From positions 544,001 to 608,000 of the forward strand of contig OZ245838.1 of assembly GCA_965228735.1 (NCBI GenBank): 64,000 nucleotides of DNA, read 5' to 3'. Both the position numbers and the translations under genes were made by a program. The stretch's first letter is position 1; each line of letters opens with the position of its first letter. A model generated the notes under the pieces. The model was not told the DNA's origin, made no database searches, and saw only the letters and a program-made list of their open reading frames with translations. Of the stretch, positions 28,970-53,063 are shown piece after piece. The DNA is from Planctomycetota bacterium. Its GTDB lineage: Bacteria; Planctomycetota; UBA1135; UBA2386.

Positions 28970-28995
28970 TGGGAGCCGGTGGATGAGGAGATGAC

Positions 28996-31413
28996 ATGAG
29001 CGCGAAACTACCGATATCTCTGGCCGTCGTGCTGCCAGATGTTGAGGAAGGACGCGATGCTTGTGTTCGTCGCCTGGAGGAGCTTCTGGAAGCGAAGAGC
29101 GGCGTCAGCAAAGTGCATCGCATCATCGAATGCGATGACGGCACTCCGGAGCGTCTGTGCGTGCACTTCGATCGTCGCCGGCTATCCGTGGCAGATGTCT
29201 GCGACTACGCACGGAGAGCGGGGCTAGAGCTCCACGAGCGGTATGGACACGTCGCCTCACGAGCGCCCTCGATGCATGCCCGCAAGGCCCGGCAGCTGAG
29301 CGAGAGTCTTCTGCGAGAACCAGGTGTCGTTGAAGCGTGTGTGTCTGCCGATGGCTCGGCCCGTGTCGAGTTCGAGCGAGAAGTCACGGATGAAGCAACC
29401 GTTCGCGCGCGTCTCGCCACACTCCTCGGAGACAAACCAGACGCTGTCCAAGAAGAACACGATCATGCACACGCTGGAGGAGGGAAGGTAGAGCTCGTCT
29501 TCGCTGCGCTATCGGGTGCATTTCTCCTTCTGGGCTGGCTGCTTCCGAAGGTTGCTGCAGTGCCACCGAGCTTAGTGCTCGGTGGGTTCATCGCGGCATA
29601 TGTGTTCGGTGGGACCTTCCCGCTCAGGGAGGCTGTTGCGAACCTTCGGCACGGGCGCTTCGAGATTGACTTCTTGATGCTCCTGGCCGCCGCTGGTGCG
29701 GCTGTTCTTGGCGAGTGGGCAGAGGGGGCGTTGCTGTTGTTCCTCTTCAGCCTCGGTCATGCACTCGAAAGCTATGCGATGCGCAGGGCAAAGAATGCGA
29801 TCGAGTCGCTCGCCGAACTTGCACCGGAGACGGCCTGGGTGAGAAGGAACGGCACTGTAGACAAGGTGCCAGTCGAGGAGCTACGCGTTGGAGACACCGT
29901 CCTCGTGAAGCCCAACGAGCGCTTTCCTGCAGACGGGTTCGTCACGAAGGGCGAAAGCAGCGTCAACCAGGCTCCGATCACCGGGGAAAGCGTGCCAATC
30001 GAGAAGCAGCCGGTCGAAGACCCGCGACGAGCACGAGAAAGACCAGGCGCGGTCGGCTCTGAGAGCAGAGTCTTCGCAGGGACCATCAATGGCAGTGGCG
30101 TTCTGGACGTCTACGTCTCCCAAGCGGCAACGGAGTCGACACTGGCTCGTGTCGTGCAGATGGTCAGTGAAGCAGAGACAAGCCGTTCACCGACGCAGAA
30201 GCTGACCGACCGTTTCGAGCGAGTCTTCGTCCCGGCTGTTCTTGGAATTGCCGTACTGATGCTCTTCGGCTGGGTGGTCGTTGAGGAGTCTTTCGCAAAG
30301 AGCTTCTACCGCGCGATGGCCGTGTTAGTGGCGGCAAGTCCGTGCGCGCTTGCCATCGCGACACCAAGTGCGGTGTTGAGTGCGGTAGCGCGGGCAGCGA
30401 GGGGAGGGGTTCTCGTGAAAGGCGGAGGTCCGCTTGAGAACCTTGGGCAAGTAAGCGCGATAGCCTTCGACAAGACTGGGACGCTGACGGAGGGGAAACC
30501 AAAGCTCGTCGACGTGCATCCAGCGTCAGGAGCGACACAGCAAGAGTTGCTACGCGTTGCAGTTGGGGTGGAGGCGCTGAGCGACCATCCACTTGCTGCT
30601 GCAGTTGAGCGAGATGGGATAGAACGGCTCGGTGCAACTACTCCGGCCACCGCCTCCGGACTGCAAAGCGTGACTGGCCGCGGGGTTCGCGCAGAGGTTG
30701 AGGGTCAAGAAGTGCTCATCGGCAAGGATGACTTGTTCGAGGAAGTCCCCGGCGCAGCACTTCCTGAAGAGCTGCAACAACGCGTGGCGGAACTTGAGGA
30801 GAATGGGCGAACCACGATGATCGTTCGGCACGGGGACCAGTACCTCGGTGTCCTCGGGCTGATGGACACGCCTCGCGAAGCTGCCAACCGAACGATCGAG
30901 AGACTGCGGGCCATCGGCGTCGGGCGGATGATCATGATCTCAGGTGACAACCAACAAGTTGCTGCAGCGATTGCTGAAACCGTTGGTCTGGATGACGCCA
31001 GGGGGGATCTAATGCCCGAAGACAAGGTGGAAGCTATCAAGATGCTTCGGTCAGAAGGACTTGTGGCCATGGTCGGCGACGGGGTCAACGACGCTCCGGC
31101 AATGGCTAGCGCGACGGTAGGAATCGCCATGGGAGCTGCAGGGTCGGATGTAGCTCTCGAGACGGCGGACGTGGCTCTGATGGCTGACGATCTTGAACGG
31201 CTTCCATTCGCGGTTGGGCTGAGTCGAGCCGCGAGCCGGGCGATCAAGCAGAATCTCTGGATGAGCCTCGGTGTCGTGGCTCTTCTGGTTCCGGCCACGA
31301 TTCTAGGCCTTGGGATTGGCCCGGCTGTTGTCGTCCACGAAGGGTCTACGTTGGTCGTTGTGCTCAACGCTCTGCGCCTACTGAGATTTGAAGACACCGC
31401 AAGCGTTGTCTGA
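28996..31413 (+). CDS. P1B-4-type heavy-metal ATPase (Zn/Co/Cd)
   Basis: TGES, SPC, DKTGT, HP, GDGVND, HEGST. Confidence 0.95.
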   Translation: MSAKLPISLAVVLPDVEEGRDACVRRLEELLEAKSGVSKVHRIIECDDGTPERLCVHFDRRRLSVADVCDYARRAGLELHERYGHVASRAPSMHARKARQLSESLLREPGVVEACVSADGSARVEFEREVTDEATVRARLATLLGDKPDAVQEEHDHAHAGGGKVELVFAALSGAFLLLGWLLPKVAAVPPSLVLGGFIAAYVFGGTFPLREAVANLRHGRFEIDFLMLLAAAGAAVLGEWAEGALLLFLFSLGHALESYAMRRAKNAIESLAELAPETAWVRRNGTVDKVPVEELRVGDTVLVKPNERFPADGFVTKGESSVNQAPITGESVPIEKQPVEDPRRARERPGAVGSESRVFAGTINGSGVLDVYVSQAATESTLARVVQMVSEAETSRSPTQKLTDRFERVFVPAVLGIAVLMLFGWVVVEESFAKSFYRAMAVLVAASPCALAIATPSAVLSAVARAARGGVLVKGGGPLENLGQVSAIAFDKTGTLTEGKPKLVDVHPASGATQQELLRVAVGVEALSDHPLAAAVERDGIERLGATTPATASGLQSVTGRGVRAEVEGQEVLIGKDDLFEEVPGAALPEELQQRVAELEENGRTTMIVRHGDQYLGVLGLMDTPREAANRTIERLRAIGVGRMIMISGDNQQVAAAIAETVGLDDARGDLMPEDKVEAIKMLRSEGLVAMVGDGVNDAPAMASATVGIAMGAAGSDVALETADVALMADDLERLPFAVGLSRAASRAIKQNLWMSLGVVALLVPATILGLGIGPAVVVHEGSTLVVVLNALRLLRFEDTASVV

Positions 31414-31436
31414 TTCGCCTTCTTCGACTCCCAGTC

Positions 31437-32075
31437 TCAGCAGCACGCCTCACCACGCCAAGCTTCGGTACCCTCGCGAACAACAAGGGCTGCGACCCCT
31501 AGGGCCGCAAGAGGGTCTGCCCACCACCAACCGAACGCGGCGTTGAGAACAATCCCTGACAGGGCGACGATCGAAAGCCACCAGCATGCCAGGGTCTGAA
31601 AGGAGTCGGCTTCAAGCGCTCGGCTCCCCAGAACACGTGCCACGGACGATTTTGCACGCGCTAGCCACCACATGACTGCGATCGAGACTGAGACAAGAAT
31701 GATCCCGACGACGCTCGTCTCAGGGCGATCCCCGTTCCACAGCGCGAATCCAGCATCCACGGAGACGTAGGCAGCAAGGAGAAACAAGGTGCCGGCCACC
31801 AGGCGATGCGCCCGGCGGTCGAGCTTCTCGACAGCTTCCGCCGCAACGGCCGTGTTGCGCCGTTCTCGAGAGAGTCTCCACAGAACGATCAAACCAGAGG
31901 CGCTCTCTACGAAGCTATCAAGGCCAAAGCCGAGCAGCGCGACACTCCCAGCAGCAGCCGCTGCGGAAACGGCGATGACACCCTCGACGACATTCCAGCC
32001 GATTGTCAGGTAGGCGAGGCTCGCTGCGCGCATGAGCGTTGCTGTCCGCGCCTGATCACTTGTCACGATCCGCAT
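31437..32075 (-). CDS. Cation diffusion facilitator-like transporter (TM domain only)
   Basis: WNVVEG, FGLDSFVE, WWWADP; start overlaps the upstream tolC end. Confidence 0.85.
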   Translation of the reverse strand: MRIVTSDQARTATLMRAASLAYLTIGWNVVEGVIAVSAAAAAGSVALLGFGLDSFVESASGLIVLWRLSRERRNTAVAAEAVEKLDRRAHRLVAGTLFLLAAYVSVDAGFALWNGDRPETSVVGIILVSVSIAVMWWLARAKSSVARVLGSRALEADSFQTLACWWLSIVALSGIVLNAAFGWWWADPLAALGVAALVVREGTEAWRGEACC

Positions 32076-33464
32076 CCGTAGCAAGGAGCACGTCGAGCGG
32101 TCGCCCACAAGCAGCCTCCAGCTCGGGGATGCTCTGGGCCACAGACTCAAGCCGTACGACATAGTCACGCCGAGTGGCAAGAAGTCGGTTCTGAGCCTCG
32201 AGGACAGATAGAAAGCCTGTCTTGCCTGCCGCGAACGACTCTCGGGCAAGGTCAAGGCTGGCTTGTTGAAGCGGCAAGAGCTCCTTCTGGTAGAGGCGAG
32301 CGGTTTCCTGCGCCATCGCGTAGCGTTCGTACGCACCCCGTACTTGTTGGGACACGTTCTCGGACACTCCCTCAAGGCGACGTATCGCCTGAGAGAAGCG
32401 CAACTCGGCCTTGGCAATCTGTGCTTGGTTTCGGTCGAAGATCGGAATCTCAAGCCGGAATGCTGGACCCAGTTCTACATCGCTGCCGACCGTTTCGAAG
32501 GCCAAGCCACCACCTAGCTTGCGCAGCTGCCGACGCCGCTCAAGAGGCACTGCGTTGCCTGCGGCCTCGACGGCCTTCTTCGCCGCGCGCAGGTCAAGCC
32601 GGTGTTCTTCGGCAACTGCGAGCAGTCTCTTGAGGTCAACGCTCCACTCCGGTGGCGTGAGTGGTGGACTCGTGAGCTCAAGTTCCTGCGGCGGTACGGA
32701 AACACCCAGCACCATCGCCAGGCGTCGTTTCGCTTCAAACGAAGCGAAGCTTGTGGAACGAACAAGCACCTGTTGCTCGAGGAAACCGGCGCGCGCGGCG
32801 TTCTCGTCAACCTGCGTCGCAGCACCGGCAGCCTTGCGTTCACGCGTGAGTTCGAGGAACTCCTGTGCGGTCTTGAGATTCTCTTCTGCAACAGCGAGAG
32901 AAGCACTCGAAGCAACGGCCGTGAAGTACGCCGACTTCGCCTGAGCCGCGAGCGTGACCGCGCGGCGAGCAACCTCGAGCACGGTTCGGTCTACTTGGCT
33001 TTCCGCAACCCTCGTGCGCGCGGGCAAGTGCCAGAGCTCGATGAGATTGTGGAGAAGTCCGCCCTCCATGTTCGTGCTTCCTCCATCGAGTGGAAGCGCA
33101 CCATCAGTTGGAGCGACGGGTTCGAGAGCAATCCAGCCTGCACTGCATCCGCACGCCGCACACCGATCTCGTAGAGCTGTTGCTGCAGAAGTCGATTGTT
33201 GAGAAGGCAAATCTGGACTGCGTCCTTTGAGGTCAACCCATCCTTCATGAGCTCTGCAACCAGCTTGCGCGCACGCTCTTCCTCTCCGGGCTGATAGAGG
33301 GTGTCTTCGCCGGTCGCTGCCTTTACCTCCTCTCGCGCTAGTTCGTAATCCGGCGTTGGGTCTACAGTGGCACATCCGCTCAAGGTGACTAGCAGCGCCA
33401 CAGCAGCGGCCACGAGCGTTTGCCGACGGAGCCGCCCAGTCTCCAATCTGGTAGTTGTTGCCAT
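32056..33464 (-). pseudogene. TolC/CzcC-like OMF with a 1-nt deletion near 33092
   Basis: N-terminal frame (lipobox LSGC, LLSNPSLQLMVRF) switches frame to PLDGGSTNMEGG...IPIFDRNQ... Confidence 0.8.
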
Positions 33465-33465
33465 G

Positions 33466-36400
33466 CTACGCAACCTCCCCGTCGGTTGTTGCTGGGACCT
33501 TCTTCATGACAAGCAGGTAGAGGATCGGCAGCACAAAGAGAGTCAGGACGGTTGACGTCAGCACACCTGCCACCACAACCGTCGCAAGTGGTCGCTGCAC
33601 CTCGGCACCGACTCCCGTGGAGATCGCCATCGGAAGAAAACCGACAGCATCCGTGATAGCCGTCGCCAGAACGGGACGAAGCCGTTGCTGTGTGGCTTCT
33701 GTGATCGCCGAACGGAGCTCGTTGCCCTGAGCAAGGAAAGAGCGAATGGCCGATACGAGGATCTGTCCGTTCAAGACGGCGATGCCTCCGAGCGCGATGA
33801 AGCCCACGGCGGCGCTCACGCTGAACGGCATTCCGCGCAGCCAGAGCGCCAAGACACCTCCGACAGCGGCGAAGGGAATCCCGGTATAGATCAGCAGGAC
33901 CTCCCGAAGACTCTTCAGGCTGAAGAACAGCAGGAAGAACACGAGAAGGAGCGTGACCGGAACAACGATCATGAACCGCACCTTCGCGTTGGCCAGATTC
34001 TCAAACTGACCGCCCCAGTTGATGACGTAGCCATCGGGGAGCTCCAGTTCGTTGGCGATCCGCGTCTGCGCTTCCTCAACAAACGAGGCAACATCGCGGC
34101 CGGCTACGTTGCACTGGACGCGGATCAGCCTTCGACCCCACTCACGGTTGATCGTCGAGATGCCCTCTTCTTCTGAGACGTCAGCCACGCTTCGCAGAGG
34201 TAGGCGAAGCCCAGATTTCGTTGGAATCAGCGTCGCACGTAGAGCGTCGGCATCGCCCCGGTGGGAATCCGGCAACCGGACAGCCAACGGGAACTTACGT
34301 TGTCCCTCGAAGACTTCGCCGACACGGCGTGTCCCGATGACCTCCACGAACTCGAGCACTTCCCGTCCTGACACTCCAACGCGGGCAAGTGCGTCGGGGT
34401 CCATGCGGATGCGGAGCGTTGGTTGCCCCGTGACCTGATCGACAGCGACGTCTGACTGTCCGGGGATGTCGACAAGAATGCGCTGTACCTCGTCACTGAT
34501 GCGCACGAGCTCGTCGAAGTCGTCGCCGTAGATCTTGATGCCGATGTCTGAACGGATGCCCGACGCCATCTCGTTGAGGCGCATCTCGATCGGCTGGGTT
34601 GCGATGATGTTCACGCCGGGTAGGTCGTCCACCAGGCTCTGCATGGCAGCGCCGAGCTCAGTCTGCGTGCTGGCCCTCTTCCATTCGCTTCGGGGCTTGA
34701 GCGACAAGAAGATGTCGGTCAGCTCGGTGCCCATGGGGTCAGTGGCGATTTCAGCTGTCCCGATGCGGCTCCAGACGTGCCGAACCTCGTCCGGAAAGTT
34801 CTCGAGCAAGAGCTTCTCGATGCGCGTGTTGTAGCGAACGGACTCCTCAATAGAGACACCGGCCAGGCGGATGGTGTTCAAGACCACCGCCCCCTCGCTC
34901 AAGCGCGGGATGAACTCTCCTCCCAGCCGTGTCGCAGTCCATCCGGCGAACACTAGAAGCAGCATCGCTCCGCTGAGAACGAACCACCGCAGCCGCATCG
35001 CTGCCGCAAGGAACCAGGCAAAGGCGCCGTTCATCGCGCGAGCGATAACACCCTCTCGCTCCCGAACACGCTTCGGAAGGAAGTAGTAGCCAAGGACCGG
35101 TGACAGGGTGAGGGCGATCAGCAGTGCCCCGCCAAGGGCGAAGATGAACGTCCACGCCATCGGGCGGAACATCTTTCCTTCGATTCCCTCGAGCGCGAGC
35201 ACGGGGAAGAAGACCACCATGATGATGGCCATGCCGAAGACGATCGGTCGAGCCACCTGCTTGCCCGACTCGGTGATGACCGCGAGACGCTCATCTTTGG
35301 TCAGCGGTCTCTTCAGCTCACGCGCACGCTGAGCCAGGTTCCGCATGTTGGCCTCGGTCATCACCACCGAGCCGTCGACGATGATGCCGAAGTCGATTGC
35401 ACCAAGGCTGAGGAGGCTTGCCGCGATCGCGAAGTGGTACATGCCGATCAAGGCAAACAACATCGCGAGTGGGATGGCGAGGGCTACCAGGAGACCGCCG
35501 CGAATGTTGCCAAGCAGTACGAAGAGCACGACGATGACGAGCAAGGCTCCGGCCAACAGGTTGTGCTGCACGGTTCCGATCACCTCGGTTGTCAGCTCGG
35601 TGCGGTCGTAGACGACTTCAACGACAACGTCTTCGGGGAGCGATCTCCGGACACCTACGAGCCGCTCCTTGAGCTCTTCGGTGACGGCCTGGGCGTTCTC
35701 GCCCATCAGCATGAAAGCAAGGCCTAGCACGACTTCGCCGCGACCGTTCGCCGTGACCGCACCGCGCCGGATCTCGTGGTCGACCCGAACCTCTTGCGCG
35801 ACATCTCGAATGCGGATCGGCGCACCGTCGAATGCGGAGACAACGATGTTCTCGATCTGGTTGACGGTTGAAACACGCCCGAGGCCATGCACGAGCTGCG
35901 ACTGCCCACCCGACGTGAGCACGCCACCACCGACGTTCTGATTGTTTTTCTCGAGCGCTTCGAAGACGTCCCCAAGGGTGAGGTCGTATTTGAGCAACGC
36001 CTCGGGCGAGACAACCACGTGGTACTGCTTCTCGTACCCGCCCCACGAGTTGACCTCAGCGACACCAGGAACCTTGCGGAGCTCCGGTTTGACGACCCAG
36101 TCGTGAAGGGTTCGCAGCTCTTCGAGCGTCCTGCGCGGGTTCTCCGAACGAAGGACGTAGTGGAAGATCTCTCCGAGCCCGGTGGAGATGGGGCCGAGCT
36201 GCGGACGCTCAATGCCTTCGGGAAGCTCTACTGTCGCCAGTCGTTCGGAGACGTACTGGCGCGCATCGATGATCCTCGTGTCGTCATCGAACGTCGCGAC
36301 GACCTGGGACAGTCCAAACTTGGATATGGAACGAACATCGGCCAGACCAGGAAGACCGCCGATCGAGAGCTCGACTGGAAGGGTGAGCTGCTGCTCAATC

Positions 36401-36594
36401 TCTTCCGGATTGAGCGCGGGGGCCACGGTGTTGATCTGGACCTGGACGGGTGTTGTGTCCGGGAAGGCGTCAACTGGCGTACGCGTTGCCGTGTAGATCC
36501 CGCCGCCGACCAGGGCAAATCCCAGCAGCAAGAACAGGAGGCGGTTGCGAAGTGAGAACTCGACGAGGCGCTCAAGCATGGAGTCCCCGTTCAC
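33466..36594 (-). CDS. czcA: CzcA-family heavy-metal RND transporter
   Basis: VDAFPD, LGAIDFGIIVDG, RLRPVLATA, GAEVQRPLATVV. Confidence 0.93.
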   Translation of the reverse strand: MNGDSMLERLVEFSLRNRLLFLLLGFALVGGGIYTATRTPVDAFPDTTPVQVQINTVAPALNPEEIEQQLTLPVELSIGGLPGLADVRSISKFGLSQVVATFDDDTRIIDARQYVSERLATVELPEGIERPQLGPISTGLGEIFHYVLRSENPRRTLEELRTLHDWVVKPELRKVPGVAEVNSWGGYEKQYHVVVSPEALLKYDLTLGDVFEALEKNNQNVGGGVLTSGGQSQLVHGLGRVSTVNQIENIVVSAFDGAPIRIRDVAQEVRVDHEIRRGAVTANGRGEVVLGLAFMLMGENAQAVTEELKERLVGVRRSLPEDVVVEVVYDRTELTTEVIGTVQHNLLAGALLVIVVLFVLLGNIRGGLLVALAIPLAMLFALIGMYHFAIAASLLSLGAIDFGIIVDGSVVMTEANMRNLAQRARELKRPLTKDERLAVITESGKQVARPIVFGMAIIMVVFFPVLALEGIEGKMFRPMAWTFIFALGGALLIALTLSPVLGYYFLPKRVREREGVIARAMNGAFAWFLAAAMRLRWFVLSGAMLLLVFAGWTATRLGGEFIPRLSEGAVVLNTIRLAGVSIEESVRYNTRIEKLLLENFPDEVRHVWSRIGTAEIATDPMGTELTDIFLSLKPRSEWKRASTQTELGAAMQSLVDDLPGVNIIATQPIEMRLNEMASGIRSDIGIKIYGDDFDELVRISDEVQRILVDIPGQSDVAVDQVTGQPTLRIRMDPDALARVGVSGREVLEFVEVIGTRRVGEVFEGQRKFPLAVRLPDSHRGDADALRATLIPTKSGLRLPLRSVADVSEEEGISTINREWGRRLIRVQCNVAGRDVASFVEEAQTRIANELELPDGYVINWGGQFENLANAKVRFMIVVPVTLLLVFFLLFFSLKSLREVLLIYTGIPFAAVGGVLALWLRGMPFSVSAAVGFIALGGIAVLNGQILVSAIRSFLAQGNELRSAITEATQQRLRPVLATAITDAVGFLPMAISTGVGAEVQRPLATVVVAGVLTSTVLTLFVLPILYLLVMKKVPATTDGEVA

Positions 36595-38192
36595 TTGTCA
36601 TCGACACAGCCAGCGCCGAGCCTCGACTTGAGGAACTCGGACATCACGGTGAATGCTCCTGTAGCAACAACAGGTTCGTCCGCGCGCAGACCTTCGACCA
36701 CCGCAACGATGTTGTTCGACGGTCGCTCGACCGTGGCGACGCGACGCAACGAGTAGAGGTCGTCTTCGAGTTTGACGAAGACGTAGAGCTTCTTCTCGAA
36801 CCGCTGGATGGCTTCCTTGGGCACATCCACTGCGCTTCTGGCATCCGAAGTGAAGACGATCGCGTCGCCGAACATCCCTGCGCTGAGCTTCCGGTCAGGG
36901 TTGCCGACCACGGCACGTGCCCGCAGCATGCGAGTCTTCTCGTCGATCGAGGTGTTGACCCATGTGATCTCACCACGTGACGCCTCGCTGGAAAGGCCGT
37001 GGAAGGTCGCCTCCACGCTCAGACCACTCTTGATGAGACCCGCGCGATCGGCAGGGATCGAGAGCGAGAGCCACATCGAGCCGAGATCCGCGAGAGAGAA
37101 TACGCTCTTGCCTGGCTCAACAGCTTCGCCGACCACCGCACTTCTCTCGACCAATGTGCCCTCGTATGGAGCGCGGACCAACAAGCGAGCTGAGGTGTCG
37201 CGATCCTTCTTGATCGCTGCAACCTCATCCGCCGTGAAGCCATAGTTGAGGAGTCTCTGTCTTGCTGTACTCAGCGTGAGCTCAGCGGTCTTGCACGCAG
37301 CATCGGCCTCCTGCACCTCCTTCTCCGAAGAGATGCTCTTCTTCGCCAGGCGCTTCTCTCGCTTGCAGGCAACCTCTTTCAGGTCGAGGTCGACCACGGA
37401 CGAGACGAACGCAGCCTTCGCGCTCGCTACTTCGGTGGAGTGCACTTCCACCAGAACATCTCCCGCCTTCACGTCCGCACCGACATCGACGAGCACTTTG
37501 CGCACGATCCCCGCGGCCAGTGGCGTGATGCGGGCCAGAGCATTCTGGTTGTAGGAGATCTCGCAGATGGCCGGAACGCTTTCCCGCACCGTGGCCTGGC
37601 GGGCGGGAACTGTCTGCACACCTGCCTTCGCAGCTGCACGGGCCGACTCGAAACGCACCTTGAGTTCGTCGCCTGGCTGCAGTTCTGCCGTGCGTTGTGG
37701 TTGGCAGATGCCGCAATCCGCCTCCGGCACCCCGTGTTCCTTACAGAAAAGACCTGGAACAGTGCGGGGGGGAGCATCCAGTTGCGCGCCCTTCTTGTCC
37801 TTCGGCTGCTTCTCGTCCTTGGAGTCTTTCTTCAGCTCGGGATGGCAGAGAAAGCACTCGTCCTCGTAGAGGCCGTGCTCTTCGCAGTAGAGGCGGCCCT
37901 TCTCCTCGAGCTGCGGCTGGCACATCCAGCATCGATTCTCGTAACGGCCGTGCTCCTTGCACCACAGGCGTCCTGACTCACGCTTGCTTGGATCACAGAT
38001 GAAGCACGTCTCGCCGGGTGTGTCGTGCTTGTGTGCGGTGCTCGTCGGATTCCTGCCAGTCGCGGTCGATTCACCTGCAGCAGGTTCGGAACCAGGACCA
38101 GGAGAGGGCTCCTGCCCACAACCGGAAAGGGCAACGCTCAAGGCGAGCATGCCGGCAAGAAACCAAGACCTTCCTCGTTTGTTGGTAGACAT
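36591..38192 (-). CDS. czcB: CzcB-like membrane-fusion lipoprotein with N-terminal Cys/His repeats
   Basis: Lipobox LSGC; three C-x-EH-x6-C-x2-C-x-P repeats; MFP core (VRAPYEG, DEKTR, GMF). Confidence 0.85.
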   Translation of the reverse strand: MSTNKRGRSWFLAGMLALSVALSGCGQEPSPGPGSEPAAGESTATGRNPTSTAHKHDTPGETCFICDPSKRESGRLWCKEHGRYENRCWMCQPQLEEKGRLYCEEHGLYEDECFLCHPELKKDSKDEKQPKDKKGAQLDAPPRTVPGLFCKEHGVPEADCGICQPQRTAELQPGDELKVRFESARAAAKAGVQTVPARQATVRESVPAICEISYNQNALARITPLAAGIVRKVLVDVGADVKAGDVLVEVHSTEVASAKAAFVSSVVDLDLKEVACKREKRLAKKSISSEKEVQEADAACKTAELTLSTARQRLLNYGFTADEVAAIKKDRDTSARLLVRAPYEGTLVERSAVVGEAVEPGKSVFSLADLGSMWLSLSIPADRAGLIKSGLSVEATFHGLSSEASRGEITWVNTSIDEKTRMLRARAVVGNPDRKLSAGMFGDAIVFTSDARSAVDVPKEAIQRFEKKLYVFVKLEDDLYSLRRVATVERPSNNIVAVVEGLRADEPVVATGAFTVMSEFLKSRLGAGCVDDK

Positions 38193-38232
38193 CACAATCG
38201 TTCTCTCCCTCGTCGCGAAAAACGGGCGAGCG

Positions 38233-38631
38233 CTATCTCGCTTCGGCACCCACGAACTTCTCAAGCACGCTCTCGGCAATGTCGAGCCATGACGAGTCGG
38301 CTAGCCGGTAGTAGGCGAGCTTGCCTTCGGCGCGGAACTCAACTGCTCCGAGGTTGCGCAGCTCTCGGAGGACCTGCGAGGTGCCGGACATGGAGATCCC
38401 GAGCACTTCACGGAGGTCGCAGACACACAGCTCCCGACCCTGAAGGGCCTTCAGTACGCGCAACCGGTTCGGGTTCGCGAGGACTCGAAAGGCGTCAGCG
38501 ACTCGTTGGAGCTCTGTGGTTGCGGGAAGCGACGCCTGAGCTTCCGAGACCATCGAGCAATCGACCTGGTTGATCTCGCAGGCCCCCTCGCGGGCCTTGG
38601 GGCTCTTCGACTTCGGCGTATCGTTCATCAT
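38233..38631 (-). CDS. ArsR/SmtB-family metal-responsive repressor
   Basis: FRVLANPNRLRVL, ELCVCDL, SGTSQVLRELR, YYRL. Confidence 0.93.
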   Translation of the reverse strand: MMNDTPKSKSPKAREGACEINQVDCSMVSEAQASLPATTELQRVADAFRVLANPNRLRVLKALQGRELCVCDLREVLGISMSGTSQVLRELRNLGAVEFRAEGKLAYYRLADSSWLDIAESVLEKFVGAEAR

Positions 38632-38647
38632 TTCAGTATATGATGAA
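38624..38647. promoter_or_regulatory. Inverted repeat, probable ArsR/SmtB operator
   Basis: TTCATCAT-N8-ATGATGAA, an AT-rich palindrome overlapping the arsR start codon. Confidence 0.65.
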
Positions 38648-39198
38648 TCGACCGCGCAGGGCAAGTTGCTGAATGAAACTCTCGTGGGAAGTCACCAGGA
38701 GGTGGTCCGAGGGCGGGTCAAGGCCCCTTGGGATCGGGATTTACGCGCTTCTGAGCTGACCATCAGCGATCGCGAGGAGCTCCCTCGTACCTCATGCGCC
38801 GCGCCCATGACGACGAGAATGCGCTTTCGGCCCTCTTCGGGCCGGATGTTGGAGCCCAGAGGCAGACGTGGCGCTTGCGGGGAGGCAGTCGAAGGGCGTC
38901 TCGTTCTAGCGCTAGATCGCGGATGGCCCTAAACTGGCACAGACCACACTTGGCGAGCGGGATCATTCGGGGGAGAAGTCGTTCGTCATGCCGAACCAGC
39001 GGCGATCAAGTGGCCGGCGTGAGGCTAGCTCCGCGCCTGCGGCCGTTGCGCTCGGGTGAGTTTCGCCTACATTGCGGCCCCTGGGACTCCTTCAGGTGGA
39101 TTTCCTGAGCGGCACCTGGTTGTCAGGGTGAGGCGCTTTCGCGTTATCTCGGCCGTGCATCCGCCTAGCCCAGTCGAGAGAGATCCATGAGAGGACAT

Positions 39199-39822
39199 AT
39201 GAGAACCACCGTGCTCGCACTGCTATGCGGAGTCGTCTTTGGAGGCGTCCAAGCAATCGCTCAGGAGACCAAGAACGTTCCTGCGGCGAAGTCGACTACC
39301 CCGGCCACATACGTCGTCGGCGTGACGGGGATGACCTGAGGCGGTTGCGCCTCGGGGGTCCGTGAGACCCTCGCCAAGATCGCAGGCGTGAAGAGCGTCG
39401 AGATCGACCTCAAAGCCAAGACCGCGACCGTAGCCATGAAGAAGGGGGGGCTGACGCGCGAAGCTGTCGTCAAGGCGCTCGTGGACACCAAGTTCAAGGT
39501 GAGCTCCTTCGCGTCGGTCAAGGCTACGCGCATGACTCCGAAGGGCGTCTACGTCGTGGGCGTGACGGGAATGACTTGAGGCGGTTGCGCCTCGGGGGTC
39601 CGTGAGACCCTCGCCAAGATCGCGGGTGTGAATAGCGTCGAAGTCGACCTCAAGGCCAAGGCCGTGACCGTAGCCATGAAGAAGGGCTCGCTCACTCGCG
39701 AGGCTGTCGTCAAGGCACTTGCAGACACGAAGTTCAAGGTGAGCTCCTTCGCCTTGGTCGAGAAGAAACCGGCGGCGAAGAAGGCTGCCAAACCAGGCAT
39801 CAAGGCCGAGAAGAAGCTCTGA
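39199..39822 (+). CDS. Exported tandem-HMA (CopZ/MerP-like) selenoprotein with two in-frame UGA codons (GMT-U-GGC x2), 207 aa
   Basis: GAGGA RBS, signal peptide, TGA at 39337 and 39577 each in the place of the first Cys of GMTCxxC, two ~80-aa repeats in one frame, Lys/Ala-rich tail. Confidence 0.85.
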
Positions 39823-39875
39823 GCTGGGTCGGCTAGACGATCGGGCCCCGGGCGCTGGCTGCGGGCCAATGCAAG

Positions 39876-39900
39876 GCCAACGCCACGACGTGGCGTTGGC
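39876..39900. terminator. Hairpin between convergent genes
   Basis: GCCAACGCCAC-GAC-GTGGCGTTGGC, a perfect 11-bp stem; no U tract. Confidence 0.45.
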
Positions 39901-39957
39901 GCTCAGCTGCAGCCGTGACGCTTCCCACGTCGCGGTTAGCGTCTCGGTTTCGATTCA

Positions 39958-42900
39958 TCAGCCCGTCGTCGTGTGCTGGCTACCGAGCCGCCGCTCCTTG
40001 ATGGTGCAGTAGAGCACGGGTACGACGAATACCGTGAGCATGGCGATCAGCATCCCACCGAAAGAAGGGATGGCCATCGGGACCATGATGTCGGACCCGC
40101 GGCCCGTCGAGGTCAGGACCGGGATGAGTGCGAGGATCGTCGTCGCGCTCGTCATGAGCGCGGGGCGGATACGCTTCTTGGCTCCCTCCACGACCAAGTT
40201 GTGTATGTCTTCGCGAGACCGCGGATGTGCTCCGCGGAAACTCTGTTCGAGGTAGGTCGCCATCACGACGCCGTCGTCTGACGCGATGCCGAATAGGGCC
40301 AGGAATCCGACCCAGATGGCGACGCTCAGGTTGATGGTGTCGACCTGGAAGAGGGCGCGCAGATTCTCGCCGAACAGGTCGATGTCGAGGAAGCCTCCGA
40401 TGCCGTACATCCAGATAAGGAGGAAGCCTCCTGCCCATGCGACCACGATGCCCGAAAACACCAGCAGCGAGGTCGAGACCGAACCGAACTGGAGGTAGAG
40501 GATCAGGAAGATGACGAACAGCGCGACGGGCAAGACCAGCGCAAGCGTCTTTTGGGATCGGATTTGGTTCTCGTAGCTTCCGGAGAAGCTGTAGCTCACG
40601 CCGGCGGGCAGTACGAACTCGCCGGAGTCGAGCTTCTGCTGTAGGAACGCCTGGCATTCTTCAACAACGTCGACTTCTGCGCTGTCCGCTTGCTTGTCGA
40701 AAACCACGTAGCCGATGAGGAACGTGTCTTCACTCTTGATGGCCTGTGGTCCGCGAACGAAGCGAATCTCCGAGAGCTCAGAGAGCGGGACCTGCGCGCC
40801 GGTCGGAGTGGGAACAAGGATCTCTCCGAGGCTCTCGGGCGTGTCGCGCAACTCCCGCAGATACCGGACGCGTACCGGGTACCGCTCACGACCCTCGACC
40901 GTCGTGGTGATTCGCTTACCGCCGATGGCTACCTCGATGACCTGTTGCACCGAGCCGACATGGAGGCCATACCTGCCGAGCGCCTTGCGGTTGAGCTCGA
41001 TCTCGAGGTAGGGCTTGCCAACCAGGCGGTCGGCGGTCACCGTCGGAGCGGATACGCCTGGGACCTGCTTCAGGTAGCGCTCCAGCTGCACGGCGACCTC
41101 CTCGATCGTAGCGAGATCGGGCCCTTTCACCTTGATGCCCATCGGCGCTCGCATGCCGCTTTGCAACATGACGATGCGCGCCGCGATCGGCTGCAGTTTC
41201 GGGGCAGATGTCGTGCCGGGTATCTCGGATGCCGCGACGATCTCGTCCCAGATGTCGTCGGGAGATTTGATGTGATCGCGCCACTGTCGGAACGGGCGTC
41301 CGTTCGTGTCGGGGATCAGGTCGCCTTCTTCGTTTCTCGCAAACTCGCCCGTTTCCTCGTCGAAGCGGAAGCTGATGCGGTCTCCGTCTTTATCGGTGAT
41401 GTATTCGGGCCGATAGTTGATGACCGTCTCGATCATCGAGATCGGGGCTGGGTCAAGAGGAGTTTCAGCTCGACCCAGCTTCCCGACGACTGACTCGACC
41501 TCCGGTATCCTGGCGATGGAGGTGTCCTGATACTGCAGGACCTCCATGGACTCACCGATCGACGCATGGGGGAGTGTCGTCGGCATGAACAGGTAGGAGC
41601 CCTCGTCCAGTGGTGGCATGAACTCCTTGCCGAGCCCCGGGAACACGCTCGCCATCCGTTGCCAGGGTGCACTCTGTCGCATGAACTCGGGCGCAAAGCC
41701 GAAGACGCGATCGAAACCGAACCAGGAGCAGGCGCCGAGAGCGACGATGAGGGTTGGCGCCGACAGGAACAGGAGCTTGTGTCGCAGGCACCATCGCAGG
41801 ACGCGCGGATAAACGCGTTGGAAGGCGAGGAACGTTCCTAGCAGTCCGCCGATCAGAACCCCGACGAATGCCAGGTTCTTGAGGAACCCGCGACTGGGAC
41901 CGAGCGGTAGCCACGATTGCGTTAGTTCGATCAGAACGAATAGCGCAACAGCCAGGCTGACGACGATCGGCCCCGAGTTACCGGTCCAGCGCGGGATCCT
42001 GCTCTTGAGGAGTTGGAATGCCGCAAATGCCAGGAGCAGACTCCCTCCGACGATGCTTGTTGTGATAGCTACGACGAGTCCTGCGGCGGCAAGCCCCGCA
42101 TGCATGAGAGCCTTGGTGCGCGTCGAGCGAATCGAGCCCGTGAACAGGATGTGGGCCGCCGGTGGGATCACCGTCAGTGCGACGATGATCGATGCAACCA
42201 GGGCGAACGTCTTGGTGAAGGCGAGTGGTTGGAAGAGCTTGCCTTCGGCGCCCGTCATCGTGAATACGGGCAAGAAGCTGACGACGGTCGTCGCGACGGA
42301 GGTGATGACGGCGCTGCCAACCTCGCGTGTAGCACGGAAGATCGTCTCGATGGGAGGTGTGTCGGGATCCGCTTCCCTGAGGTGGCGCAGGACGTTCTCA
42401 CAGATGATTACGCCCATGTCGACCATCGTGCCGATGGCGATTGCAATACCCGAAAGCGCGACGATGTTCGCCGCGACCCCGAACGTTCGCATGGCGATGA
42501 AGCACATCAGTACGGCGACTGGGAGCAAAGCGCTGATGAGCAAGGAGCTCCTCAGGTGAAGCACCATGATGAGCATCACGATCATCGTCACGAGGATCTC
42601 CTCGACGAGCGCTGAGTTGAGCGTGCCGAGAGTCTCGTAGATGAGGTCCGTTCGGTCATAGAACGGGACGATGGTCACCTGGCTGAGGTTCACGCCGGTA
42701 GGCCATGCCGACTTCTCATTGGATCTCAAGAACGGCACCCAGGCCGCTTGGTTGAGGTCGTCACCATCGAACGCCTCGAACCCCTGTAGGGCTGCGAAGC
42801 CGCGTAGCGCGTCTTTCGACGTTGCCGTGAAGTCAGCGATTGCCTTCGTCGGCAGTCCAGGGGCGATCTCCGCGATCTTCGCCTTGGTGTTCTTGATCGC

Positions 42901-43808
42901 CTGAAGCGGGTTGAAGCCGTAACGGACCACAACGACACCGCCAACGGCTTCTGCGCCGCCCTTGTCCAACGCCCCTCGACGCAGGGCGGGCCCCTTGGTG
43001 ACATGGCCGACATCGCGGACGCGGATCGGCACGTTGTCGTTGACACGTACGACGGTCTCCTCGATGTCCTCGACGTTCTTGACGAAGCCAAGGCCGCGGA
43101 TCACATACTCGGCTCGGCTGACCTCGATCGTGCGAGCGCCGACGTCGAGGTTCGACATCTTCGTTGCCGCGAAGACCTGATCCAGCGTGACGCCGTGTGC
43201 CCGCATGGCGTCCGGATCGACGTCGATCTGGTATTCCTCGACGAATCCACCGATGGAGGCGACCTCGCTTACGCCTTCTGCAGCAAGCAGCGTGTAGCGG
43301 ACATACCAGTCCTGCACACTGCGCAACTCCTGTGGCCCCCATCCTCCAGTGGGGTTGCCGTCGGGGTCGCGCCCCTCGAGTGTGTACCAGTAGACCTGAC
43401 CCAGTGCCGTGGCGTCCGGTCCGAGCGCTGGCTGGACGTCCGCGGGCAAGGTGCCTCTCGGCAGGCTGTTGAGCTTCTCGAGGACGCGGCTTCTGCTCCA
43501 GTAGAAGTCGATGTCCTCATCGAAGATGATGTAAACGGTCGAGAAGCCGAAGAACGAGTAACTGCGTACCGTCTTGACACCGGGCAGCCCGAGAATACGA
43601 TCTGCTGGTTCTCACCGATGTCGGGGATGGCGTCGACCGGAACCGGATCGCGTGGCAAGCCACCTGCTTTCCAATCGAACGGGGCGACGAGCGCACCCCA
43701 TCCCATGACGCCGAGCACAAGGAGGAAGACGATCAGCTTCTTCCGTAGGCAGAACCAGATCAGGCGGTCCAGGAACGACTTCGGTTCGTTGGTGAGATCA
43801 CTTGCCAC
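39958..43808 (-). pseudogene. cusA: CusA-family Cu/Ag RND transporter with a frameshifting deletion near 43594
   Basis: VDAIPDIGENQQIVF joins out of frame to LGLPGVKTVRSYSFFG; the segment normally between them is missing. The remainder is intact (AIGTMVD, KEFMPPLDEG, RIRPALMT). Confidence 0.85.
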
Positions 43809-46137
43809 GGAGGTCCTCGCGAGGCTCGAGGGTTTCGATGGCGGAGCCGCAATCCAGCATCTTGGCGCCGTAGTAGGGGTTCTGCACCTCGTCCGAACCC
43901 TGCAACCAACGCGCGCCGCGGCCGTCGAATGCCATTGGGCAATGCATGACACGGACCTTCGCAGGCGAACCGAGTGCGCGGAGTGCCGTTTCAATACCCT
44001 TGGACACTTGCTCGAACGCCGCTCGCGCACCTTCGATGTCGTCGCCCTCGGAAATCTGGCGCGCGCTCGTGACCACTGCGTTCGTCAACGATTGCCACGC
44101 GACTTGCGCCGGTGCTGGTAGAGACGTCGACGAAACGCCGTCGGTTGCGGCGGCCAGCTTCGACGCTGCCGACTTGGCCTTGCTGAGATCGTCAGCTGCG
44201 AGGGCCGAATGCAGATCAGAGTAAGCCTCCCAGTTCCGTCGAAGCGCTGAGCGCACCTCCTCCGGCAACTCGACGGGCGTACCTGACGGGGATTCTGCCG
44301 TCGTTTGGAAGTGCTTCCGCATCATCTCGACCGACGTGGTGAGCTTCCCGAGGTTTGACTTCGCGGTCGACGTGTCAGGCGAAGCACTGCCTTCGAATGC
44401 GTCGTTCGACAGGCGCATCGACAGCTCCATCCACATCTTGTGGGAATCCCCCTCGAACAGCTGCATCCGGGTTTCGGCAACGGCCTTGCCGAGTTGCTCG
44501 AACCGTTGTTTTGCTTCGTGGAGGTCGCCTGCATCTACGGACGCGGTGATGTCAGCGTAGACCCGCTCGATCAGCTGCAGTCGAGTCCGCGCGCCCGCCG
44601 AGAGCATGGAAGCGTGGCTCTGACCCGAGGGCATCGTTGCTGGCTTCGTTCCGGCTCCGCCGCCGTGGTTGTGGCCGCCCGCGGGCTGGCCGCCCGCAGG
44701 GCTCATCATGCTCGGTCTGGCCTGCAACTGGAGAGCGCTGTCGATCTTGAAGTTGCCTTCGGCCACCACGAGCTCGTTTTCCTGGAGGCCGTGAAGGACG
44801 ACGTACTGGTCGCCGGCTCTCGGTCCGAGCACGACCTCCCGACCCTCGTAGGTCGGAGTCTCTCGGTCGGGGAGCTCGACGTAGACGATGGCGCGCGTTC
44901 CGGTCACCAAGGTGGCGGAGACCGGCACAACGAGCGGGGCTTCGTCCTGAACTTCAGTTGCGGGGACGTAGCCGAGTTCGTGGGCAGGGACGAGATCCAT
45001 GCCGCACACGTCGCACTTGCCGGGGCCGTCCTTCACGATCTCGGGATGCATGGGGGAGATCCACTTTCCGACGAGGGATGGATCCATGACCTTGCCAGCG
45101 CCAGCGATCCGGGCCGCGACGGTTGCGTGCACGAACATGTCTGGCTTGAGCAGGCCGTCGGGATTCGGCACGTTCACGCGGACCTTGACGGTGCGTGTGC
45201 GACGGTCGAGGACGGGGTCGATGAAGGAGATTCGGCCGTTGAACCGTCGTCCGCCGTAGGCCTCGGTCTCGAACGAGACCTGCTGACCATATCGAAGCCA
45301 CTCCAGGTCGCTCTCGTATGCGTCCAGTTGCACCCAGACGTGACTGAGGTCCGCGATCGTGAAGATGCGCGTTCCCGTCTGCACGTACATGCCCTCCTGG
45401 GCACTACGGTGGATGACGAGGCCGGATGAAGGTGCGTGGATCGTGACGTGCTCCTCGGCAGATCCCCGTTTCTCGATTGCCGAGATCTGCTCCTTCGAGA
45501 GGCCCCAGAGGCGCAGCTTCTCTCGTGCCGAGTCGATGGTGCCCTGAGCCGAGGCTCTCAGTGATTCGAACTCGCTCTTCTGCAGGTCTCCAAGCGATGC
45601 TAGCGCCTGTAGCAGCTCCTCCTGCGCGCTATAGAGCTCAGGGCTGTAGAGCTTCACCATGTGGTCACCCTTGCGCACGGTGACCCCGGTGAAGTCTACG
45701 TAGAGCTCGTCGATTCTCCCTGGAACCCAAGCGGTGATGTAGCCGAGTCGTGTCTCGTCGTAGGTCACCTTGCCGACGAGGCGCACCCTTGCATCGGGGA
45801 AGCGTCGCTCGACGGGGACGGTTCGAACGCGCATGAGGGCTCGCTGTTCCGGACGTATCGTCAGTTGTCGTAGCCCACCCGAGTCGCCGCCGCTCGAGGC
45901 CCGGATGAGATCCATCCCGCAGATGGGGCACTTGCCCTGCGATGGCATGCGGATCTGTGGGTGCATGGAGCAGGTCCACACTTCGGCTGCAGCGGCATGG
46001 CCTTCGTGCGTAGTCGTCGAGTGCTCGGGGTGCGTGGGCGGTGTTGCATCACCCCATAGGAGGTAGCCGACTCCGAGCCCGGCGATGGTTGTGGCGACGA
46101 GCAGCGCGGTCAGACGGGTGGTCTTGCTTACGTTCAT
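43798..46137 (-). CDS. cusB: CusB-family MFP with heavy-metal-binding domains and C-terminal DUF3347-like region
   Basis: WTCSMHP..CPICGMDL, ISPMHP..CDVCGMDL, MFP core, HCPMAF...NPYYG. Confidence 0.9.
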   Translation of the reverse strand: MNVSKTTRLTALLVATTIAGLGVGYLLWGDATPPTHPEHSTTTHEGHAAAAEVWTCSMHPQIRMPSQGKCPICGMDLIRASSGGDSGGLRQLTIRPEQRALMRVRTVPVERRFPDARVRLVGKVTYDETRLGYITAWVPGRIDELYVDFTGVTVRKGDHMVKLYSPELYSAQEELLQALASLGDLQKSEFESLRASAQGTIDSAREKLRLWGLSKEQISAIEKRGSAEEHVTIHAPSSGLVIHRSAQEGMYVQTGTRIFTIADLSHVWVQLDAYESDLEWLRYGQQVSFETEAYGGRRFNGRISFIDPVLDRRTRTVKVRVNVPNPDGLLKPDMFVHATVAARIAGAGKVMDPSLVGKWISPMHPEIVKDGPGKCDVCGMDLVPAHELGYVPATEVQDEAPLVVPVSATLVTGTRAIVYVELPDRETPTYEGREVVLGPRAGDQYVVLHGLQENELVVAEGNFKIDSALQLQARPSMMSPAGGQPAGGHNHGGGAGTKPATMPSGQSHASMLSAGARTRLQLIERVYADITASVDAGDLHEAKQRFEQLGKAVAETRMQLFEGDSHKMWMELSMRLSNDAFEGSASPDTSTAKSNLGKLTTSVEMMRKHFQTTAESPSGTPVELPEEVRSALRRNWEAYSDLHSALAADDLSKAKSAASKLAAATDGVSSTSLPAPAQVAWQSLTNAVVTSARQISEGDDIEGARAAFEQVSKGIETALRALGSPAKVRVMHCPMAFDGRGARWLQGSDEVQNPYYGAKMLDCGSAIETLEPREDLRGK

Positions 46138-46141
46138 CTTG

Positions 46142-47545
46142 CTACTTCTCCTTGTCGGACGATTTCACGTCCGCGCTCTTCGTGGGGATCGCGTGGCCGA
46201 CGAGGCGCTCGAGTACCGCTCGCCACTGTCCGTGGTCGGCACGGGATCGCTCGAATGACAGTTCGAAGGACAGCAGCATCCGCTGCGCATCCACCAGGTC
46301 GGAGAAGCTTCCATTCCCCGCGCTGTAGGCTGTCTGAGTGGTCGCGAGCGACTCGCGCGCCTTGGGAAGCAGTGTGTCGCGATACAAGGCAATCTGTCGT
46401 TCTGCGTCGCGGATGCGGAACAGCGCAGTCGCCGCTTCTGCCTGAAGCTTGTTGAGCAGGTCTCCTCGTCTCAGTGCCGTCGAAAACTGGCGGGCTTTGG
46501 CTTCACGAACGGCCGCGTTGTACTTGCCGCGTGCAATTGGAAGATTGAAAGAGACGCCAGCAATGACGGCATCGTCGCCGCTGCCCGCCACTCCAGGCAT
46601 GCGAGCATCGCCGGTGGCCAGGTAATCGACACCGAAGGTGAAGTCGGGGTAGAAGTCCTTCTCGGCACGCAGGGCGGCTGCCCTTGCGGCGTCGATTTCG
46701 TGCCGCATCGCCATGAGCTCCGGGTTGCTGGTGGCAATCCACCCGAGAACCTCTTCGTCGGGGGCCCCGAGCGGATGGACGTCGGCCTTCTTTGGGAACG
46801 GGATCGGAGTCGATTTGCGTCGATTGAGCGCCGCGTTCAATCGTGCGATGAATGGCGACTTGCGATCGTCCAGGCTGGCCAGCTGGTTCTCCAGCTGGCC
46901 GAGTTCCACCTGGGCGCGGATGATATCGGGGTGGTTGGCGGCTCCTGCCCCGTAGCGGGCGCGGGCTACTCGCTCAAGCTGCTGGATGAGGTCGCGGTTG
47001 CCGCGGACGACTTCGACGGCACGCCCCAGATGGTAGTACTCCAGGTAGGCATCGATGACCTCTGCGACAAGCGAGTCTTTCTTCGCCTCGAACCTCTCCT
47101 TAGCGGCACCTGCAGCGCCCGAGGCGATCTGGCCCTGCAACTCGAGTTTGCCGAACCAAGGCAGTGTCTGTGATAGGCCGAACGCGTGCTGTTGCGGACC
47201 GACGCGGGTCTCGACTTCCTGGATGTAGTACCGGTAGCTGAACCTCGGATCCGGGAGCGCCGTCACCTGGGGGATGCGCTCCATCGCGGCGATGTAGTCC
47301 TGGAACGCGGCTTCCAAGCCGGGGTTGTTCAGTAGCGCGTACCGGATGTAGGTATCGAGATCGGAGTTGATTGTGAAGTCGGGCAGTTGCGGCCGTTCGG
47401 CGCGCATTCCGGCTGGTGCGCTGGTGTACGGACCGATGGGCGTCGTGCGTGGATGCATGCTGCACGCGGCAATCGTGGGTAGGAGGCAACAGAGGGCGTT
47501 GCCGACGCGGACTCGCGTCCACCGACGTTGTGCTGTCGTCTTCAT
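46142..47545 (-). CDS. TolC-family OMF (CusC role)
   Basis: Lipobox-like IAAC, ALPDP, LPWFGKL, DFYPD. Confidence 0.9.
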   Translation of the reverse strand: MKTTAQRRWTRVRVGNALCCLLPTIAACSMHPRTTPIGPYTSAPAGMRAERPQLPDFTINSDLDTYIRYALLNNPGLEAAFQDYIAAMERIPQVTALPDPRFSYRYYIQEVETRVGPQQHAFGLSQTLPWFGKLELQGQIASGAAGAAKERFEAKKDSLVAEVIDAYLEYYHLGRAVEVVRGNRDLIQQLERVARARYGAGAANHPDIIRAQVELGQLENQLASLDDRKSPFIARLNAALNRRKSTPIPFPKKADVHPLGAPDEEVLGWIATSNPELMAMRHEIDAARAAALRAEKDFYPDFTFGVDYLATGDARMPGVAGSGDDAVIAGVSFNLPIARGKYNAAVREAKARQFSTALRRGDLLNKLQAEAATALFRIRDAERQIALYRDTLLPKARESLATTQTAYSAGNGSFSDLVDAQRMLLSFELSFERSRADHGQWRAVLERLVGHAIPTKSADVKSSDKEK

Positions 47546-47635
47546 CGTGAGTTGACTCGATATGTGCGGATCATGAGAGCCGCACCCCCATAGGCGGTGA
47601 CCCGTACCATCTTAGGGGCGCTCGGTTTGGTGGGC

Positions 47636-53031: not shown

Positions 53032-53063
53032 TTTGGAGATGCCTCGCTAAGAGATGTTGGCCA

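Follow-up and report, generated by a model that had tools for sequence, protein, structure and literature searches.

The loop of the SECIS elements of Escherichia coli and Moorella reads G-G-U-C-U. In E. coli fdhF and in Moorella the element is bound by winged helices 3 and 4 (WH3-4) of SelB (PDB 1WSU). The consensus that Zhang and Gladyshev drew up for the bacterial SECIS (bSECIS), set out in section 5 of a 2026 review (PMC13188914), has a loop of 3–9 nt, an upper stem of 4–16 bp, a UGA-to-loop distance of 16–37 nt and a minimum free energy (MFE) of −7.5 kcal/mol or lower, and the loop has a G in its first two positions, usually followed by G or U. A stem of 6–8 bp with a G about 20 nt downstream, and a link of about 13 nt when modelled on the ribosome, has been described (PMC4605307), while the E. 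coli SECIS has an 11-nt spacer with G23 and U24 (PMC8659212).

Selenocysteine (Sec) proteins with an HMA-type domain or a role in metal transport have been catalogued before. NCBIfam model NF041115 (UxxU_metal_bind) appears as ‘putative mercuric reductase’ in Table 1 of PMC13188914, which also holds a cation-transporting ATPase family with UxxC, and the GOS survey listed two sequences of a ‘Mercuric transport protein MerP’ selenoprotein (PMC2398784, Table 2). The models TIGR02052 (MerP) and NF045683 (MerT/CopZ) also belong here.

The stretch of DNA analysed here (the window, 64,000 nt, positions 544,001 to 608,000 of contig OZ245838.1 of the Planctomycetota genome G000) contains two genes with in-frame UGA codons in HMA domains. 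The first, P0001 (39187..39822, forward strand), starts at 39187, or at 39199 with a better ribosome binding site. With TGA read as Sec it encodes 211 amino acids, or 207 if translation begins at the second ATG. The start of the protein resembles a signal peptide, both of its HMA domains carry the motif M-T-U-G-G-C, and export is predicted. UGA 1 is located at 39337..39339 and UGA 2, in the second copy, at 39577..39579; the last TGA (39820) is the stop, and the homologues L205 and L214 have a TGA at the matching place. The second gene, P0002 (60249..60551, forward strand), encodes a single-HMA protein of 100 amino acids with a predicted lipobox, the motif P-T-U-G-G-C and its UGA at 60375. Both the signal peptide of P0001 and the lipobox of P0002 were called by eye.

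With U read as C, P0001 scored 81.8 bits in two stretches and P0002 38.9 bits (residues 42–94) against the HMA model PF00403, above the gathering cut-off of 24.8, and with their MxCxxC-type motif both proteins are members of this domain family. In alignments with Cys homologues and with solved copper-ATPase domains, Sec falls on the first Cys of MxCxxC. P0001 resembles NF041115 in its HMA fold and in having Sec in the metal-binding motif (E = 9e-20), but P0001 and P0002 score 70.6 and 30.5 bits against a cut-off of 95, the motif is UxxC and not UxxU, and P0001 has two domains. Against TIGR02052 the scores were 57.9 and 32.8 bits (cut-off 92.55), and a further score in the group that includes NF045683 was 53.2 bits against a cut-off of 375; both proteins fall below every NCBIfam cut-off. 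Unlike the catalogued MerP, MerT, CopZ and ATPase selenoproteins, these are stand-alone, predicted exported, repeated domains, although they may overlap with the GOS MerP family. No mer genes were present among the 26 window ORFs scanned, the neighbours being RND pumps, P-type ATPases and ArsR. In a related genome (G022), an HMA domain with a UxxU motif (GITUMGUP) was seen at L040:932+.

Literature searches on HMA, MerP and CopZ selenoproteins and on planctomycete selenoproteomes, which covered listings and passages of 10.1101/2022.07.06.499078 and PMC12013277, returned no description of an exported multi-Sec HMA subfamily. Relative to Table 1 of PMC13188914, NCBIfam 20.0, Pfam and these searches, the subfamily of P0001 and P0002 is uncatalogued. 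On balance we favour the view that they represent an uncatalogued group of exported HMA-repeat selenoproteins with one to three domains, each with its own UGA and SECIS, which is carried between genera on an island, depends on the Sec machinery of the host and, in this host, is part of a set of about 48 selenoprotein genes that includes further uncatalogued families. The newer points are this exported multi-Sec HMA carrier subfamily and the roughly 48 candidate genes; the RNA element itself is ordinary.

Downstream of UGA 1, an upper hairpin was found at 39353..39373 (forward strand) with 8 bp, the loop CGUGA (39361–39365), a 13-nt spacer and a folding energy of −12.5 kcal/mol; the hairpin following UGA 2 (39593..39613, forward strand) is identical. 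This is the GGGTC-(CGTGA)-GACCC fold that the first-pass annotation had placed 22–26 nt past the UGA, with the stem extended to 8 bp. That annotation had also seen a related loop after the third UGA. A hairpin CGCCAC-(CGTGC)-GTGGTG does follow it (60389..60405, forward strand; 17 nt, 6 bp, loop CGUGC at 60395–60399, 11-nt spacer, −6.9 kcal/mol alone and −7.9 in a 32-nt window), but the CGTG loops are not positionally homologous, as the third lies 4 nt nearer to the UGA, at 18–22 nt.

When compared with the bSECIS rules, all three hairpins have 5-nt loops, stems of 8, 8 and 6 bp, a G within the first two loop positions (CGUGA, CGUGA, CGUGC) and UGA-to-loop distances of 21, 21 and 17 nt, and they are located directly 3′ of an in-frame UGA aligned to a conserved Cys. 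For the MFE limit of −7.5, hairpins 1 and 2 pass, whereas hairpin 3 is borderline and misses it when folded alone. Hairpins 1 and 2 therefore satisfy all four rules published for bSECIS; the signal is genuine, yet it belongs to the standard bacterial type. Their 13-nt spacer and the 11-nt spacer of hairpin 3 agree with the figures of PMC4605307 (about 13 nt) and of E. coli (11 nt, PMC8659212). With the consensus (Zhang and Gladyshev; PMC13188914) the hairpins share the site in the coding region right after the UGA and a stem of 6–8 bp, and with the consensus, E. coli fdhF and Moorella alike a 5-nt loop with G second and U third, 17–21 nt from the UGA. The bulged U17 of the narrow E. coli fdhF-type element (PMC8659212) is absent, hairpins 1 and 2 consisting of 8 contiguous pairs. 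In contrast to E. coli and Moorella, the loop reads C-G-U-G-(A/C) with no U17-type bulge, each domain of a tandem gene has its own element, and two registers 4 nt apart occur within the HMA family.

Folding was repeated with the UGA and the next 9–12 nt blocked, as on a ribosome. The upper stem then had a probability of 0.99–1.0 in copies 1 and 2 and of 0.47–0.77 for hairpin 3. Among 20,000 synonymous recodings of copy 1, an equally stable hairpin arose in 1.3%, and no such hairpin was found downstream of the terminal UGA of P0001, which served as an internal control. Shuffle z-scores for folds over the whole window were weak (−1.7 to +0.5), and an Rfam scan of 39000–40000 (E ≤ 10) gave one weak, unrelated match. 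A lower stem, GCGGUU/GAUCGC, ending with the 47-nt identity described below, was considered and rejected: it appeared in the MFE structure of the isolated 45–48 nt only, its probability was 0.0 in longer or ribosome-aware folds, and it was not conserved across 27 same-register domains.

Homologues were collected from 60 relatives, from a genome-contig scan for DNA encoding G-M-T-U-G-G-C and from a search for the Cys pattern in 401 genomes of the phylum; the hairpin sequence was used as a pattern in none of these searches. The contig scan gave at least 119 loci, with an HMA domain in 84 of those listed, while 35 were dropped as non-HMA or too short. The matched Cys pattern gave 15 loci. A pattern scan of metagenomes gave 57 loci, 11 of them with an HMA domain of at least 20 bits and the others chance matches. 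Removal of redundancy at 85% identity left 87 of the 123 Sec domains and 33 of the 36 Cys domains among the matches listed, most of the Cys controls being cytoplasmic CopZ/CopA-type domains and not close orthologues.

A hairpin was called when at least 5 bp enclosed a loop whose first or second position was G and whose next position was G or U, 16–30 nt past the codon, with ΔG ≤ −3. Among the matches listed, 73/87 non-redundant Sec-HMA domains passed this test and 14 failed it, whereas the rate was 5/33 in Cys-HMA domains and 19% when the Sec set was recoded synonymously; a stricter ensemble test retained 47/87 and 1/33 domains. The conservation expected of a bSECIS, present in Sec homologues and lacking in Cys homologues, is therefore found. 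Some relatives combine two or three Sec-HMA domains (L020, L021, L203, L205, L214, L227, L237 and L246); in six of these (L227, L237, L246, L203, L020 and L021) the motif has U-x3-C spacing and the UGAs are followed by GUC-CGUG(A/C)-GAY-type hairpins. In another HMA group with the motif GMTUGGCERxV (L053, L072, L102, L136 and L146), the three members tested had no canonical hairpin, and in four of the group a stem of the GCCUU-GGAGA/GGAAA-GGC type folds at a greater distance from the UGA; it may be a SECIS of a non-canonical kind.

These surveys bear on the notion that the UGAs are real stops or errors in a pseudogene, with the repeat identity a matter of chance, to which we give almost no credence. 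A UGA occupies this codon in the 84 HMA loci listed out of at least 119, with the HMA domain continuing through it; no difference at the first UGA was listed in DNA and RNA contigs; and the gene with the same UGAs recurs in G013, L205 and L214, which largely refutes a pseudogene. Contigs from RNA libraries spanned parts of the P0001 gene in two runs, although they are silent on transcription, strand and level. One related contig of this kind differed from 39118–39548 at 16 positions and by a 3-nt insertion, with none of the 11 listed differences in 39337–39383. A promoter and terminator scan gave nothing useful for the P0001 gene.

At least three hairpin registers were distinguished in the HMA family: the loop at 18–22 nt, the commonest and that of the third UGA; at 22–26 nt, as in P0001 (25–29 nt with an inserted codon); and at 23–27 nt, in a GGUCC type. 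Covariation across homologues, proposed earlier as a check, was found in both registers of the window. For the P0001 register, 90.5% of cells were paired in 24 domains, 21 cells were changed on both sides, six of the seven pairs had two-sided changes, and none of 500 shuffles was as high on pairing and covariation score; slid controls were 39–49% paired. For the register of the third UGA (56 domains), 85.7% of cells were paired and 100 changed on both sides, again with 0/500 shuffles. As rows were picked by register and the sequences are related, these shuffle counts overstate the significance and are upper bounds. The loop core GTG/CGT also corresponds to common codon usage for Val and Arg.

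The first-pass annotation had noticed that 47 nt from each UGA of P0001 are identical while the remainder of the repeat has drifted. The 47-mer at 39337..39383 (forward strand) is indeed identical to that at 39577–39623, with mismatches at 39336 and 39384 bounding the block, and all flanking codon differences it listed were found. The block is located inside a 213-nt repeat with 25 mismatches between the copies. In 100,000 shuffles of these mismatches, a run of at least 47 nt occurred with a probability of 0.033 anywhere in the repeat and of 0.0012 at this place. Synonymous differences between the copies affected 0/14 codons within the block against 15/45 outside (Fisher p = 0.0125).

Constraint over the full 47 nt did not hold up as well as the identity itself, since the invariant part in close homologues is the upper hairpin. 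In seven close domain copies, 0/6 synonymous-capable codons varied in the upper hairpin against 3/6 in the remaining block, and the sole change within the stem (L205 copy b) retains pairing as G-U; for the whole block, synonymous variation was 3/12 against 16/30 elsewhere, which is not significant (p = 0.17). The constrained core is best read as the 21-nt hairpin (39353–39373 and 39593–39613), shorter than the block, which in turn is best read as this selected core with flanks kept by protein constraint and homogenisation. The core is constant in both repeats because each tandem domain needs its own hairpin, and homogenisation from repeat to repeat probably adds the flanks.

A stronger role for homogenisation appears to us somewhat unlikely: the identity would then be due chiefly to gene conversion or unequal crossing-over that took place recently between the repeats, and its overlap with the hairpin would be incidental. 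A run of this length is expected by chance at P = 0.033 when the whole repeat is considered; five sites are common to both copies within a gene yet different between genes, two of them (+37 and +42) inside the block, with one site position-fixed; one-domain forms of the gene exist (L244); and in DNA contig X13 the sequence of copy 1 passes into that of copy 2 across the block, which may be an assembly collapse. Gene conversion does not account, however, for the contrast between Sec and Cys domains, for the compensatory changes or for the hairpins that other phyla have in genes with a single domain. The G000 copies moreover differ at 23/204 nt, more than those of L205 (12) and L214 (8), with the block still intact.

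A stem overlapping the UGA itself had been put forward as a competing fold. It is present in models of the free RNA (39334..39356, forward strand; core GAGGCG-GTTG-CGCCTC, −17.0 kcal/mol in copy 1), but it is not conserved, not enriched over the Cys controls and blocked during decoding; at the third UGA, where such a stem had also been proposed, none of −5 or stronger was found. That this stem acts as a regulatory switch tuning read-through against termination, for example with selenium supply, is in our judgement very unlikely. With −17.0 kcal/mol it outranks every other helix of this kind in the 87 Sec domains of the matches listed, L205 and L214 have nearly the same sequence there, and in free RNA its probability is about 1.0 in copy 1 and 0.1–0.6 in copy 2, where the upper stem reaches 0.46–0.92. 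Helices of −5 or stronger over the codon nevertheless occurred in 14/87 Sec against 12/33 Cys domains (among the matches listed), and in the near homologue L061 synonymous changes weaken the stem to −6.7 while the upper stem is kept. The two structures share one base and both fit in one MFE structure, and the overlapping stem is unable to form once the UGA and the next 9–12 nt are held unpaired. With GGC...GCC codons, such a stem arises easily at high GC.

The host genome encodes selA, selB and selD above cut-offs and tRNA-Sec (selC), and selD itself contains a TGA. The C-terminus of its SelB matches PDB entries for fragments of Moorella SelB, 1WSU among them, and retains the SRK-x-x-x-PLLEY stretch of the Moorella C-terminal fragment. 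The host side of a bSECIS system, being SelA, SelB with RNA-binding winged helices, tRNA-Sec and SelD, is therefore complete. A genetic code with TGA as Trp was rejected: tRNA-Trp(CCA) and tRNA-Sec(TCA) are the only relevant tRNAs present. Together with the Sec-versus-Cys contrast, the covariation and the lack of a hairpin past the terminal UGA, the host machinery bears out the SECIS reading of the first-pass annotation. We are highly confident that each UGA is followed by a conserved, covarying hairpin of 6–8 bp with an N-G-U-N-N loop that is a standard SECIS, to which SelB likely binds so that Sec is placed at the first Cys of the HMA motif.

With a ribosome on the UGA, about 12 nt of mRNA are predicted to lie in the entry channel, where the alternative stem would be melted, and the upper hairpin would fold just outside. 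From known structures, the last winged helix of SelB would read the G/U of the loop and deliver Sec-tRNA. An exported U-x-x-C protein is predicted as the product. It would chaperone or buffer soft metals, for instance Cu(I), Ag(I) or Hg(II), and its fold and neighbourhood suggest that it would work beside the efflux pumps of the island described below. Without selenium, translation would halt after about 50 residues. We infer SelB binding, Sec insertion at each UGA, export and the soft-metal role next to the pumps from these combined data.

The genes belong to a 79-kb integrative heavy-metal island (G000 564827–643706), the left part of which occupies 20827..64000 of the window. At its left end an att repeat of about 50 bp starts at 20827; the tyrosine integrase and the tRNA-Gly(CCC) next to it are located beyond the window. 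The island contains three RND efflux sets, two P-type ATPases, a multicopper oxidase and ArsR, and has a GC content of 63% against 69%. G013, which belongs to a different genus and encodes a selA of its own, carries the island at 99.98–99.99% identity, and the same gene with the same UGAs is present there, as in L205 and L214. Cross-binning of the two assemblies is unlikely because both are single contigs with different flanks. The sel genes are outside the shared island, and the hairpins would consequently have to work with the SelB of at least two hosts. The G000 copy carries an extra 1.4-kb multi-copy insertion relative to G013, and further att-like copies, one at G000 541752 and one at 489186, point to a stacking of islands. 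Beside P0001, a CusA-like gene (window 39958–46137, reverse strand) looks split into two ORFs, of which 43798–46137 contains the membrane-fusion part; with TGA read through, one frame continues into the CusA N-terminus, with a possible frame break near 43500–43800.

A coding-score and hairpin scan of G000 was used to list further candidate selenoproteins. Sixty regions were compared with Pfam, 19 of them also with NCBIfam, and 16 were dropped as gene junctions or unsupported. The 44 regions kept (43 genes), with selD and four HMA genes, give about 48 candidate selenoprotein genes with 52 UGAs. In 30 genes the UGA falls within a known domain match or at its boundary, and the other 18 rely on coding score, motif, paralogues or NCBIfam. 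The candidates are mostly exported and comprise thioredoxin-fold, peroxiredoxin, deiodinase-like, MsrA, AhpD and HMA proteins. This genome-wide scan, which was not aimed at formate dehydrogenase, turned up none. The ten largest selenoproteomes in BSepDB have 63 to 46 genes, without a planctomycete (PMC13326102, section 11), and the host is loosely comparable in size, with the proviso that BSepDB counts known families only. Planctomycetota are absent from the main texts of the 2026 review (PMC13188914) and the BSepDB paper (PMC13326102).

Three candidate families, FG-GAP U-C, MetE-like Sec and GHPLGCTU, are absent from the 2026 catalogue as given in Table 1 of PMC13188914. Across 26 genomes, TGA was present in 17/17 matches of the FG-GAP U-C family, in 24/24 of the GHPLGCTU family and in 5/12 of the MetE-like family, where six other readable matches have Cys. 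The FG-GAP U-C genes of G000 are L259 (3065085+), L260 (5872224−), L261 (406817−) and L276 (5458926+), with the SECIS loop AGUUC (CGUGG in L276), and the 33 nt after the TGA are identical in nine loci from several genera; a literature search on FG-GAP U-C selenoproteins gave nothing relevant. GHPLG(C/Q)TU is the motif of four paralogues of an exported family (L287, L288, L295 and L297) without a Pfam or NCBIfam match. L301 (G000 1762143+) resembles cobalamin-independent methionine synthase (PF01717) and has TGA where homologues have Cys; the five TGA forms share a CGUGAU/C-loop hairpin, and five of the six Cys forms are without a hairpin. Genes with two UGAs were also seen: L256 (G000 2372− and 2123−), whose exported product consists of two HMA-like halves without the partner Cys; L277 (4484882− and 4484867−), a GGGUTGSGUGG protein; and L265/L266, a VPGU-thioredoxin fused to an MsrA-like part. 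Two more single-domain Sec-HMA genes, lipoprotein-like and with CGUGC-loop hairpins, are L012 (G000 3694905−) and L013 (494192−).

The locus provides an unusually clean natural test of the bSECIS model: it offers paired repeats and an internal true stop, homologues with Sec as well as with Cys, and hairpins in two registers. Genes truncated at the UGA by annotation are validated too, both those for Sec metal-binding proteins of mobile resistance islands and those of a large selenoproteome in a planctomycete.

The suggestion of a lineage-specific SECIS did not stand: the hairpin conforms to the published consensus, Sec-HMA genes from several phyla carry the same CGUG(A/C) loop, and another genus has the island almost unchanged. 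In its stronger form, a lineage-specific class read by a specialised planctomycete SelB, we regard it as highly doubtful. CGUG(A/C) makes up 46/68 pentaloops in the HMA set (among the matches listed) and recurs in other genes of the genome. Yet the hairpin fits the general bSECIS consensus (PMC13188914), the same loop was found in loci labelled Acidobacteria, Anaerolineales, Betaproteobacteria and Deltaproteobacteria besides Planctomycetota, the genome's own loops vary (CGGGC in selD, AGUUC, GGUCU, GGUCG), and WH4 of the host SelB resembles that of Moorella. A standard bacterial element is therefore the better description.

An N-G-(U/G)-N-N pentaloop hairpin followed 29/51 candidate Sec sites, a count inflated by the many sites found with the hairpin filter, and 51/1,892 true TGA stops, 97% of which were without such a hairpin. 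Loop positions 1 and 4, whose complementarity was not filtered for, were Watson-Crick complementary in 25/29 pentaloops at candidate Sec sites against 13/51 after true stops, a feature that could be taken in favour of a distinct class. In the SelB-bound loops of E. coli and Moorella, a G is paired with a C between these positions. A pair between two loop positions is mentioned in a figure legend of the review (PMC13188914). Pairing of loop positions 1 and 4 (C-G, A-U or G-C) is supported by the present locus and could sharpen SECIS predictors.
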